Assembly (NCBI GenBank): GCA_012295275.1 | Contig: CM022670.1 | Coordinates: 16,926,001 to 16,990,000, forward strand | Direction: 5' to 3' | Source: Chrysomallon squamiferum | Lineage: Eukaryota > Animalia > Mollusca | DNA length: 64,000 nt | Shown here: piece after piece, positions 15,501 to 24,500 of the stretch | Numbering within the stretch: position 1 is the stretch's first letter | How the letters are laid out: every line of letters begins with the position of its first letter | Notes under the pieces: model-generated | Told to the model about the DNA's origin: nothing | Seen by the model: the letters and a program-made list of their open reading frames with translations, nothing else | The model's database searches: none | Position numbers and translations under genes: made by a program

Positions 15501-18500
15501 TTCATGAGAAGATAACAGAGATAATCAAAACAAAATATGAGAATTAAATCTGCACAGAAAAACGAAATGAAGAAAACAGAGATAATCTAACGTTGTTCTA
15601 AGTGAATAAAACTAAGCAATTCATCTTATAAAATAATTGTCAGTTACATTGTCATAATGATTTATACTCTTGTTCAATTTGTTTTGATGTGTATTTCGTT
15701 TACAGTTAATAATATACAGTTTGTAATAACATGTATTATACATAGTTTGTAATGATGTGATTTTACACAGTTTGTAATGATGTGATTTTACACAGTTTGT
15801 AGTGACTTGTATTTTACATAGTTTGTAATGACGTCATTTTACAGTTTCTAGTGACGTGTATTTTACACAGTTTCAATGACGTTTATTTTACATAGTTTGT
15901 AATAATGTACATTTTACACAGTTTGTAATAATGTGCATGTTATATAGTTTGTAGTGACGAGTACTTTACATAGTTTGTAACGACGTATTTCACACAGAAA
16001 GTTTATAATGATATATATATTACAGTTATCCTAACAATTAAGCGCCTGTTTTCAATTCTAACATTTTAAGCATGTCGATTGTGCTTCCAATTTTGTTCTT
16101 AGCTTTCTGGACATCTGCTTTGGCATCCTCAAAATGTTTGTCAACCACTGCTTGTGGTGTGCATCCAATTCGAAAATAGGTTATCTGACCTATTTGCAAT
16201 AGAAAAGAAGAGTATTTAAATATATATATGTATATTAAAAATGAAACTGAATAACTAAGACATAATAAAGTTGTTTTTACATATAACAGTATCGGAAATG
16301 TTTCGATAAGTTGAAATTAAAGGCAGTGTACAAAAGAGTTAAGGATTATTTTAAACAAATATAAAGTTTATTTAAGTCTGAGACAATTTTGTCTAAAGAG
16401 TTTCAATTTTTAATACTTTTCTGTGAATATTCATGAGCCAAGTTTAAATATTAATGTTAATATGTTCGAGATCAATCTAGAAAGATTTCAGTTAATTTTA
16501 AAATTACCGTTGTCAATGTCTGTACAGTTAACTACTGTTGATGCAGATGATTCGTTTGAGACTCCGTCACAAATCATTCCATCCAGTTTATCACCTGTAA
16601 ATGTAAACATACAGATATATAGACAGATAGATAGATAGATAGATAGATAGATAGATAGATAGATAGATAGATAGATAGATAGATAGATAGATAGACAAAC
16701 AAACAGACAGACAGATAGACAGACAGATAGATAAACAGAAAGATAGATAGATAGACAGACAGATAGATATATATATATATATCACAAATATGTCGATATA
16801 TAGATGGAAGGATATATAGATAGATAGACAGACATACAGAAAGATAGGTGTATAGATAAAAAAAAACTCACATACACATACATATAAATGCATACATACC
16901 TACATACAAACAGATATATCAAAACAAAAGTTTCAATGCTTGTGACAAATAATTGATGTGATGATTACGTTGTTGTTGTTGTTGTTGTTTTTTTGTTTTT
17001 TTTTATATTATTATTATTGTTTTTGTTTTTACTTCCTTCTATAACGAATTGGTACTAATTAATTCAGCATGGAGAATAATTTTTTAAATTTGATTTCGAA
17101 ATATTTAATAAGTATTAAGCAACTACAATGACTGTATAAGTGTGTTTGGATTTTGTTGTTGTTGTTGTTGTTGTTGTATTTATATTTACCAAGTGTTTTG
17201 ATGACCATGTCGTGATGGGTACTGTCAGGCCCGCCACTAACATTACCGGACGTAATGGCAATAGGACCAGACACCGAAACCAGATATGCTAGAACGGAAG
17301 AGTCCGGGACGCGGATACAGATACTGTCTGAAGTTCCTATAATGTCGTAGGCATCCCCGACCCCGAGTCTGTACATCCAAGGTCCCTTTTGACGACACAG
17401 CTAATTCCTCCGGGGTAGCATCTCTTCATAAAGGCCCACAGCAGTGGACTGAAGTCCGGGTTAGCTGCTCTCAGCTGGTCGAGATTTGATAGACAAAGAC
17501 AGATGGGTTTCTCCGTAGGACGTTCTTTGACGTTGTAAATTTTCCTGATGGAATCAGGATGTTTGCACGATGCTCCGATAGCGTACACTGTGTCTGTTGG
17601 GGTTCCTATTACTCCACCCTTGTCCAGGATTTGAGCCACTTCTCTGAGAGCTGACGCCTGGTGCGACGGAAACAACGGACACGGCGTTGTGTTTTGGTGT
17701 TGTTCATTTCTACCACGGCATCTTCAAAATACTTGTCCACCACCTCTTTTGGGGTGCATCCGATTCTGAAATAACTTATGTCTCCTGAAAGTTCATCAAT
17801 ATTTATTGAATTTTATTTATTCAGTTAAGACAGAAAAAATATATAATGAAGAAAAGAAGCATGATAATGCTGTAATATTTATTAATGTTTTTTTTTTTTT
17901 TATTATTTTTTTTTTATTATTAAAATTATATTGATATTTAAATTTATAATATTCTTCCAGACTGAAATAAATTTACCTTCGTCTATTTTGGTGCAGTTTA
18001 CCACTGTCGAAGCACACAACTCTCTGGACTCCCCATCACAAATTACTCCATCCAGTTTGTGTCCTTTAAAGAAGAAAAAAAATAAATATTTATACAAAAT
18101 TCGATAAAAATAATACCTCGAAAAAGGATATATTATTAATTTTTCATATTATTATTATTATCATCATCATCTTTTTTTTTTTTTTTTTAATTTTTTTTTT
18201 AAATTCTTTGTTTTTTTCTTACTTTTTCTCCGAAATAAAAATGTATGGAAAATAAGAGCCCAGAGTCGACATGTATTTTAAACAATCTCTTACCAAGAGA
18301 ATTTATCAACATGTCATGGTGTGTACTATCGGCCCCTCCACTCGGGTTTCCAGACGTGATAGCTATGGGTCCAGAAATGGACACAAGGTAGGACAAAACA
18401 GAGCTGTCGGGAACCCGGATGCAGATGCTGTCTTTGGTTCCAATTATGTCGTATGCATCACCAACTCCTAGGTTGTACATCCAGTCACCTTTAGACACGA

Positions 18501-21500: not shown

Positions 21501-24500
21501 ACAGATCATCAAATTTTAAAAAATAATAACAATAACGCCGGTATCTCAGATATGGATTAAAATTTTGAAATAATATGGACTAACGTCGCTTGTGGGGCCC
21601 CTCCTGGATTAGAGGCCCTAGAGCGTAAGCTTCATGAGTTTCACAATACATCCGCCCCTGTTTCCAGAGCTTATAATGTTTACCTGACAACAAATGATTT
21701 TATTTCAATCATAAACATTTGTGTTTTTAATAAACTTGTAATTTATATCTGCAACAGTTACAGCTAAAATGTTGTTCAAATACGATGGTTGTATTGTATT
21801 AACAGTTTCTTGAAATGAAATCTGTTAATGAATTAAAAATTAACATGTTCGTACCTTTTCCAATGGTTCGCTGGCAGGCTCGACCAGAGAACGTCCGTTT
21901 ACACTGTTAACCATAGTGTAATGTTAATCTACAGATACAAATAATTCTGTTACAATAATAATAATAATAATAATAATAATAGCAGAAATAGTAGTAGTAG
22001 TAGTAGTAGTAGTAGTAGTAGTAGTAGTAGTAGTAGTAGTAGTAGTAGTAGTAGTAGTAGCAGTGGTAGTAGTAGTAGTAGTAATAGTGGTGGTGGTGGT
22101 ATTTCTAGCAAACTACTTAACTTATTATTATTATTATTTCTTTTATGAAATTTGTAAAATAAAATAAATAGATATAAGAAAATAACATAAACATACGTAC
22201 TAAAGTAAAATAAAATCAGAACTGTTTTATTTTAATTTTTTTTTTTTTTTTTTTTTTTTTAAATTTCAAGAAGAAATATATTGATGAAAAATATTGAGGA
22301 AAAAATATTGAGAATAAATAAGAACAAATTAACTACTAAATTAATTACCAATATTAAAATCTCTTACCTTAGTTAACTGGTTTCAACTTGTTACGATCAA
22401 TGTCAACTTTCACCGAAGATCCTGTCTTTTTATAGAAATCTCTGACTCATATATACCGGTACTTTCCTTTTTAAAAAAAAAAACCCAACACCAACAACAG
22501 CTATAAGAATAAGAAAATAATAATAATAATAATAAAACAACAACAACAAATGCATTATATGAAAGGCGTTACCCAAGAAACTACGTCATTGTTTTCATCA
22601 ATAACGCCATCAAAGAGATGAAGGTGGAAGAGTCGATCGGACGAGCAAAAGTGAAATACTTTCACGTAGCTCGCTGCCGCACGCAGATCTCCGCTGTACC
22701 GCGTGCACGCAGTTTGTTTGCACATTGTTGTCAATGGTTCACAGCGGTTTGTGCGGTTTTCCGCTTTCGTGGCCGTCGCGTTCACCACTCAGTTGTCGTC
22801 GTGCGAACAGCGGCCGCCATGACGTGCGTACGTACGTACTCGACGAACGTAAAGAAAGACATACGTCGACGTCGGTGTTCGTGTGGTTTCGCAATATTTT
22901 CAGTAACGCCCACTGTAGTTTCGTAAATTTCTAAATTTTTATTTTATTTATTGGCTAATAAACGTTTAACAGAATGTACAAAACTGTTTGTTATCGATAA
23001 AGTTATATTTCTTATTCGATTCCCGATAATACTATGATTCCATTAAGACAGTCTACAGACACAGTATAAAAGATAGTTTAGCAGTGTAATTAGATCTTGG
23101 TAAGGTAACAAATTCTGTATGTCTAACTGATAAAGAGTTGTTTTTCTCCACACAGGTTTATGTGGGGACCTCTGAGATTAGAGGAATCTTGACTAGTCAC
23201 TGGACAGGCTGCATGTGGTATAAACAGAAAAATGAAAATTTTACTGCAGATTATTATTTCACAGGTAAATAATGTCTTTAAATGTTTACCATTGCTACAA
23301 GCTTATAGTTTTGGCAAATTTTTTATTTATTTTAAGTGAAACTTCCCAAAACGGGATTTTCCCAAAACTCAATGAATTCCACCGTCCTGTTATATTATTA
23401 TAATTTTTTTATTTTTTTTTTTTTTTTTTTATTTTTTTATTTATTTATTTATTTATTTATTTATTTATTTATTTCAATAAATCGAACACAGAAGGTTCTA
23501 CCACTGTTCCGTTTTGAGAAAACAATTCTCATATAATTATTTACAAACTGATAATAAACGATGTCCGAGTTCTGTAATCCTTAAGTAAATAACAATAAAT
23601 TAAAAGAATTTAGTAATACGAAAACCATTCATTTCACAATGTTAAAATTATTTCTGCATCGGGTGATACATGTTTAAAAAAAAAAAAAAAAAAAATTTAA
23701 AAAAAAAATAAAATGTTTAAGATAGAGAAAAAAGACGTTATGTTATTGACTTTGAGTATTTTTCTGAATATATTACGTTGTTCAAAAAGGCTTTTGGACA
23801 GAAACTTTTATTGTATTTCTAATTTATATTTGTACTGTTTTTTCTATTGTTTTTTCAAACACACTTATCTAGTTTAAAAACGTCTTTGAATGTTTACCAC
23901 AGCTAAAATGTTATAGTTTTGACAGTTGTGTTTTATTTGAAACTTTAATCTATAAAGTTATGATTAATTAATAGTACTATAAATATTTTTCATTATTCCA
24001 CTGTAATATATCATGTTTTAATCTGTTGCAAGCTAGAATTCTGGGAAAAATGTATATGATAATTCAGAGATAATATATCTTATAATCATCTATATTTAAT
24101 ATGGGTAGAAGGTTCTGTGATCTTTGGTTAACACTGGTTTTTGGAAAATCCTGCTTTTGGCATTCTTCATTTTTGCTGCCTTTGGAGTGGTACACATAAA
24201 TTATTATTTACTGCTAATTATTAAGAGTAAATTCCTTCATTCTCAAAATATCAAGAACTATCAAAATAAAAACAAATTTAACGATAAAAAACGTCTGTTA
24301 ATGCTATTAACCATTCTGTAACGTTAATATACAAACTGTTTGTTTATTTATTTATTTATTTATTTATTTATTTATTTGTTTATTTGTTTGTTTGTTTATA
24401 ACGTTCATCAGCTAAAAACTGGACGACAGCATCGACGAGTCCACAGATTCCAGTCCGGATTGAAATTAAAGGAGTTCAGACATTTTCTAATGGAACTGCA

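Follow-up and report, generated by a model that had tools for sequence, protein, structure and literature searches.

YrdC is usually regarded as a universal one-domain tRNA enzyme, and a locus of the snail Chrysomallon squamiferum raises the question of why four such domains should be joined in a single gene. The gene occupies positions 16038–21914, on the minus strand, of a 64,000-nucleotide stretch of contig CM022670.1 (assembly GCA_012295275.1, positions 16,926,001 to 16,990,000; hereafter the window). Judged by its sequence, it belongs to the YrdC family and has an undescribed architecture of a recently recognised paralogue. On balance we favour the explanation that its four tandem YrdC domains come from the enzyme end of the Ato–YrdC fusion and form a predicted soluble chain of 955 residues, a dosage-amplified aminoacyl-carbamoyl-AMP synthase of a non-tRNA and possibly immune-linked pathway.

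Gene structure and reading frame

The gene consists of ten exons with GT-AG borders at every intron, and PF01300 is the sole domain that Pfam identifies in it, with all ten exons accounted for. PF01300 matches above the curated cut-off were obtained in all four repeats, one per large exon, as the initial annotation had expected, although repeat 4 is matched in two pieces. The single start exon and single terminal exon described there are confirmed by the exon anatomy, as is the claim that the C-terminal segment of one repeat runs straight into the PCPLF start of the next. Both lie within one exon in each of the three large fused exons, and the internal exons are free of stops. The large exons alternate with four exons of 87 nt, all internal exons are of phase 1-1, and the repeat periods are 225, 227 and 228 codons.

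The coding part of exon 1 (21855–21914) provides the ATG and a 20-residue leader; an in-frame TAA lies four codons 5′ of this ATG, and an acceptor AG lies 14 nt upstream. Exon 2 (20813–21341) contains the N-terminal core of repeat 1 (PCPLF...PTDTVY...KER...RIP...SGN; PF01300 E value 7e-27), and a contig from X5, one of the same-species short-read DNA runs compared (X1, X2, X4 and X5), spans exons 1 and 2. Exon 3 (20470–20556; 87 nt, phase 1) continues repeat 1 with an AST motif. Exon 4 (19417–20004) fuses the C-terminal segment of repeat 1 (YFRIG) with the core of repeat 2 (6e-29) and lies whole within single X1 and X2 contigs. Exon 5 (19088–19174; 87 nt) belongs to repeat 2 and is bridged by X4 and X5 contigs to exon 6 (18294–18887), in which the end of repeat 2 is fused to the core of repeat 3 (4e-27). 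Exon 7 (17977–18063; 87 nt, repeat 3) is linked by contigs of X4 and of the related organism B to exon 8 (17190–17784), where the end of repeat 3 meets the core of repeat 4 and where two single bases are missing in the assembly. The remainder of repeat 4, whose match is split (2e-19 and 2e-6), is carried by exon 9 (16508–16594; 87 nt) and by the terminal exon 10 (16038–16189), which adds a short tail and the TAA at 16038.

As assembled, exon 8 measures 595 nt and lacks one base near 17692 and another near 17389, so that the spliced open reading frame ends at residue 736. In X1 and X2, which derive from two studies, the contigs have, at full depth, an additional base behind 17389 and another behind 17691/17693; X4, from a third study, shows 692 letters with two gaps over a 690-nt stretch, and the organism B contig has 461 letters over 459. 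Since three studies carry both missing bases, the frame of repeat 4 is open, as observed in all three of the same-species runs covering exon 8 (X5 has almost no cover there). With the two bases restored, the coding sequence comprises 2868 nt, i.e., 955 residues and a stop. The initial annotation was therefore correct in its four domains and their joints and, after this restoration, in a product of about 955 residues, but it overlooked the two 1-nt frameshifts that leave repeat 4 out of frame in the window. Assembly error is their likely cause, although they may also represent a private broken allele of the assembled animal; the window also holds substitutions that are absent from X1 and X2. 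Given the open frame in three studies, a pseudogene is unlikely.

The repeats are 79–83% identical in amino acids (216–217 codons) and 71–72% in bases. The proportion of synonymous differences between them is saturated (pS 0.76–0.87), compared with a nonsynonymous proportion (pN) of 0.10–0.14, in keeping with the many synonymous differences noted in the initial annotation. The reported lack of similarity among introns also holds, save for A/T-rich simple repeats: 9 of 12 intron pairs score inside the range of 100 shuffles, and these repeats raise the other three above it. X1 contig depth is about 45–57 on each large exon, and single contigs take in whole fused exons and bridge exons 1–2, 2–3, 5–6 and 7–8; no contig among the runs compared spans the whole locus. 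A mis-assembled repeat was rejected on the basis of the 28–29% nucleotide difference between units, the even X1 depth and the contigs bridging several exon pairs.

The predicted product is a four-domain mRNA translated into a single chain of 955 residues. The maximum 19-residue hydropathy of the repeats is 1.2–1.4 and they therefore contain no transmembrane segment. With 1 R, 2 K and 4 D/E among its first 31 residues, the N-terminus of the chain lacks a basic character; as far as composition can indicate, the earlier description of an N-terminus free of transmembrane segments and mitochondrial presequence stands.

Affiliation with the animal Ato–YrdC family

A search for longer proteins with exon 4 as query yielded 72 hits, mostly animal proteins of about 860 residues with the YrdC domain at their C-terminus, and a precomputed hit to PF01184 (Gpr1/Fun34/YaaH) is present in 39 of them. 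The best identities, 77–79%, were to Haliotis-type proteins, with up to 78% to Haliotis Ato–YrdC. Passages of work published in 2025–26 describe this Ato-Sua5/YrdC fusion as three channel domains plus YrdC, known from non-mammalian vertebrates and certain invertebrates and of unknown function (Ghasemi et al., bioRxiv 10.1101/2025.05.26.656167; iScience PMC13316224). They list a fused and a soluble zebrafish member (si:ch211-153b23.3 and.4, respectively), and passages of the preprint predict that the fusion dimerises (10.1101/2025.05.26.656167).

In trees of 67 and 33 rows, the window repeats cluster with the tandem repeats of abalone, beside Gigantopelta and the Ato–YrdC of abalone (support 100/98), a placement that suggests a vetigastropod-like snail; the clade stands apart from prokaryotic Sua5/TsaC rows. 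The trees included two H. rubra repeats in one case and one in the other, 3 of the 27 repeats of H. rufescens, and no fragments shorter than 110 or 150 residues. Within these trees, which lack a canonical animal YRDC row, the repeats nest deep in the Ato–YrdC clade. This placement supports the initial view that the gene does not encode the housekeeping enzyme for N6-threonylcarbamoyladenosine (t6A), while identifying a parent family that had been overlooked. The Ato transporter part itself was not found in the window, where tblastn of the Ato–YrdC proteins P0006 and P0009 matched the YrdC part only.

A profile search of 1.84 billion representatives recovered a second animal clade and a set of long relatives, with the nearest prokaryote-type rows at about 1e-35. 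The long relatives (P0104, P0107, P0111, P0116 and P0234; 900–1140 residues, one from the MMETSP collection) resemble the Ato–YrdC enzyme domain and suggest either an origin of the family before animals or its transfer between eukaryotes. The second animal clade (P0098, P0099, P0102, P0105 and P0106) includes amphioxus and cephalopods; some members have KxQ or KxL in place of KxR and are possibly altered or inactive enzymes. Other arrangements observed were prokaryote-type fusions of AIR carboxylase (PurE) with YrdC (P0184, P0215 and P0226), another link between YrdC and bicarbonate chemistry, and a YrdC–LMWPc fusion (P0151).

Active site and predicted chemistry

The ATP-binding tetrad KxR/SxN is kept as KER and SGN in all four repeats. 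The same holds for five Thr-contact positions mapped by alignment from P. abyssi Sua5 (T35, H67, R121, S181 and R195), with Cys at the H67 position of every repeat, as at C78 of human YRDC; both the motif and the contacts are given in passages of PMC6004061. All 76 family rows carry K, the R of RxP, S, N and the final R without exception. SGN rather than SAN marks the vetigastropod-like clade (2 of the 76 family rows in alignment A3), and each window repeat holds 10–11 cysteines. Because the ATP tetrad and the Thr pocket are conserved, the likely chemistry is the conversion of an amino acid, bicarbonate and ATP to a carbamoyl-AMP. Functional partitioning among the domains, one of two options in the initial annotation, finds no support in the catalytic and substrate-pocket residues checked, which are identical in all four repeats.

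An AlphaFold2 model of the Littorina two-repeat homologue P0003, built from a 17-row alignment, reached a mean predicted local distance difference test score of 77.6 and a predicted template modelling score of 0.57, the latter making its inter-domain packing tentative. Foldseek matched this model to P. abyssi Sua5 and T. maritima TsaC2 at E values of about 1e-12, and an Atlas search with P0003 returned generic PF01300 clusters only.

Recurrent tandem amplification in gastropods

Multi-repeat proteins account for 5 of the 72 longer hits and come from Littorina, Batillaria (two models), Pomacea and Haliotis rubra. Littorina and Batillaria have two repeats and H. rubra seven Pfam stretches, compared with four in C. 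squamiferum, and a gene model of H. rufescens in the H. rubra cluster (XP_048255139.1; P0243) encodes 6201 residues with 27 repeats at an exact period of 228 residues. Its inner 25 repeats differ by 0–3 residues, and every catalytic motif is kept. The initial annotation had given one catalytic domain per chain as the norm for YrdC. We found no account of multi-YrdC proteins in the literature searched, in which most subscription papers were outside our reach and to which figures and supplements of Ato and IRG1 papers may add mollusc architectures; however, multi-YrdC models already exist, uncharacterised, in public annotation.

The paired repeats of caenogastropods cluster with Ato fusions from caenogastropods, and the approximately unbiased test rejects one origin shared by every soluble gastropod form (p-AU 1e-4). 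Tandem soluble forms likely arose at least twice in gastropods, although gene conversion from a neighbouring fusion gene could produce the same tree pattern. In five genera (Haliotis, Batillaria, Nucella, Pomacea and Babylonia), the soluble and the fused gene either carry adjacent locus tags or have the same scaffold length. Taken together, repeat numbers of 2, 4, 7 and 27 in different gastropods, the near-identity of the abalone repeats and the identical pockets favour dosage over division of labour, in line with the amplification that the initial annotation had considered as its other option.

Candidate functions

The gene likely began as a copy of the three YrdC exons of an Ato–YrdC gene that left out the transporter; head-to-tail repetition presumably came next, and the old last exon became fused to the next first exon, as is evident from the exon anatomy. 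Judging by residue conservation, each domain would, like TsaC/Sua5/YRDC, take up bicarbonate, ATP and either Thr or a comparable small amino acid, from which it would release carbamoyl-AMP. The arrangement would provide more active sites per transcript for a slow enzyme with an unstable product, and even repeat numbers may, speculatively, pre-pay dimerisation. According to passages of 10.64898/2025.12.03.692196, human YRDC is slow and dimeric, accepts other amino acids, and has a Km of 7.8 mM for Thr and 3.3 mM for bicarbonate; from the published data in those passages we calculate a kcat of about 0.02/s. Threonylcarbamoyl-AMP (TC-AMP) has a half-life of 3.5 min and decays partly to an oxazolidinone. 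Carbamoyl transfer could have as its candidate acceptor a partner from the IRG1L/pIRG1 neighbourhood, or spontaneous ring closure could yield an oxazolidinone.

The initial annotation had suggested a role in another carbamoylation pathway, and the Ato transporter fusion and the IRG1L neighbourhood give this idea a context that points to a non-tRNA, possibly immune-linked pathway. Genes for VOC, YrdC, 2-oxoglutarate-Fe(II) (2OG-Fe(II)) oxygenase and GAT are reported in passages of 10.1101/2022.06.17.496652 as syntenic with both pIRG1 and IRG1L, the latter being lost in therians. Shigella infection of zebrafish changes si:ch211-153b23.4 and.5 together with irg1l and a phytanoyl-CoA-dioxygenase-like gene, all of them within the top 50 of the changed genes (PMC6980646); 283 of 337 genes went up in that experiment. 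Passages of a further study place si:ch211-153b23.3,.5 and irg1l among the hub genes of one module (PMC11140123). A broader proposal, which we advance only tentatively, is that an ancient innate-immune gene cluster of non-mammalian animals (pIRG1/IRG1L, VOC, 2OG-Fe oxygenase, GAT, Ato exporter and YrdC) produces an undescribed metabolite of carbamoyl or oxazolidinone type and exports it. Its YrdC step would be rate-limiting and would have been amplified repeatedly in gastropods, to 2, 4 and up to 27 copies per chain, and the pathway would have been lost in therian mammals.

Several points weigh against these interpretations. The conserved Thr pocket fits t6A synthesis equally well, and the nesting within Ato–YrdC was obtained with canonical animal YRDC missing from the tree rows. 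The immune link rests on zebrafish, not on snails, and it requires that the YrdC gene of the synteny paper be an Ato–YrdC family member, which we infer from passages of that paper; its authors, in the same passages, saw no obvious functional clustering. Among the 81 of about 300 candidate open reading frames of the window that were scanned, there was no IRG1L-neighbourhood partner, and the YrdC gene appears to lie inside an intron of an unrelated gene. The 27-repeat abalone protein may be inflated by assembly or annotation. Finally, the RNA runs X8 and X9 contain no spliced joint of the gene. They provide three short pieces each, and those of X8 include intron sequence, so that such few and short pieces are no evidence either way.

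Alternatively, the repeats could be extra TC-AMP synthases that top up t6A under high translational demand, e.g., in haemocytes or secretory epithelia, beside a housekeeping YRDC. The unchanged Thr pocket and ATP tetrad agree with this, as do the diffusible nature of TC-AMP, which makes direct contact with a second enzyme unnecessary, and the limitation of t6A flux by Thr and bicarbonate stated in passages of 10.64898/2025.12.03.692196. However, t6A supply leaves unexplained the ancestral fusion to a member of a carboxylate-channel family, the reported IRG1L synteny, the loss in mammals and a 27-fold amplification for a catalytic tRNA mark, and we regard it as unlikely.

The domains could also be modules for ligand binding (Thr, bicarbonate or ATP) or dimerisation that regulate or dock on the Ato–YrdC channel, with the soluble forms as multivalent partners and catalysis secondary. 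Dimerisation is predicted for the parent transporter fusion, human YRDC is dimeric, and in the five genera named above soluble copies and the fusion gene match in scaffold length or have neighbouring locus tags. Yet the invariance of the catalytic residues in 76 family rows goes beyond the conservation usual for binding modules, and a 27-mer of near-identical units is explained more simply by dosage, which makes a channel partner rather improbable.

We give little credence to the explanation that the four units do not share one transcript but form shorter isoforms or separate transcription units, or that repeat 4 is a broken allele: the phase 1-1 internal exons would allow exon skipping in frame and therefore shorter isoforms, no spliced joint was seen in X8 or X9, and the window has two frameshifts and substitutions absent from X1 and X2, but the internal exons are stop-free between a single start exon and a single terminal exon, Haliotis, Gigantopelta and organism B have the fused exon too, multi-repeat models exist in public annotation, and three studies carry the open frame.

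A dosage-amplified carbamoyl-AMP synthase outside tRNA modification thus remains our preferred explanation. Enzyme polyproteins of 4–27 copies suggest selection for bulk product and strongly hint at a metabolite as the product of the paralogue. Compared with the membrane fusion, the soluble repeats of the snail and the soluble orthologue of zebrafish are much easier assay targets. They open the roles of Ato–YrdC and of the IRG1L neighbourhood to direct test, which matters for immunity in invertebrates and fish. Public labels such as 'threonylcarbamoyl-AMP synthase' and 'uncharacterized' obscure the tandem YrdC paralogue.

Genomic surroundings

Upstream of the coding exons, a likely non-coding 5′ exon (22369–22468, minus strand) has stops in all three frames, and a GC-rich stretch at about 22600–22930 is the likely promoter. 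Intron 1 contains a dispersed repeat at about 21500–21640, and tandem repeats of ~27–29 nt at 15720–16010 directly follow the stop codon in the likely 3′ untranslated region. The whole YrdC gene is enclosed by a predicted plus-strand intron (15233–23155) whose flanking exons splice in frame at canonical sites. PAN matches downstream indicate that the host is likely a multi-PAN-domain gene, although no homologue joined the parts (no hits among 15 candidates in one search and no usable hit in another). This large multi-exon gene at 14276–40837 on the plus strand includes PAN domains in five exons and probably a membrane anchor near 40682–40837. Elsewhere, the window contains two divergent FkbM-family methyltransferase genes (PF05050) with long single open reading frames (4346–6546, minus strand; 9546–10604, plus strand), and a plus-strand gene of the LDL-receptor family (54150–62760) with class A, EGF and class B repeats that runs toward the window end.

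Comparison with known systems

With the YRDC/TsaC/Sua5 threonylcarbamoyl-AMP synthases (PF01300), the gene shares the KxR/SxN tetrad, the Thr pocket and, according to the Foldseek result for the Littorina homologue model, the fold. The known enzymes have one domain per chain, whereas the window gene has four, lacks Sua5_C and belongs to a separate clade; it also differs from housekeeping YRDC/Sua5 orthologues in its domain number and, as far as composition can indicate, in lacking a basic mitochondrial presequence. HypF and TobZ provide a precedent for a YrdC domain that makes a carbamoyl-adenylate for a non-tRNA acceptor, as stated in passages of PMC9654439, but they carry a Kae1 transfer domain in the chain, which the window gene lacks, and use carbamoyl phosphate. 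The multi-YrdC models of gastropods (H. rufescens XP_048255139.1, H. rubra XP_046556888.1, Littorina XP_070194255.1 and Batillaria KAK7489506.1), labelled uncharacterised or hypothetical at NCBI, have the same head-to-tail layout and fused junction. The abalone repeats are homogenised, in contrast to the four old and diverged repeats of the window, and the caenogastropod pairs form a separate clade. With the Ato–YrdC fusion family, the gene shares its motifs and its place in the YrdC domain clade, and the exons of the two are laid out alike across that domain. The relevant passages of the Ato–YrdC papers cover vertebrate fusions and make no mention there of soluble tandem forms or molluscs; the window gene differs from these fusions in having no transporter domains and four tandem YrdC domains.

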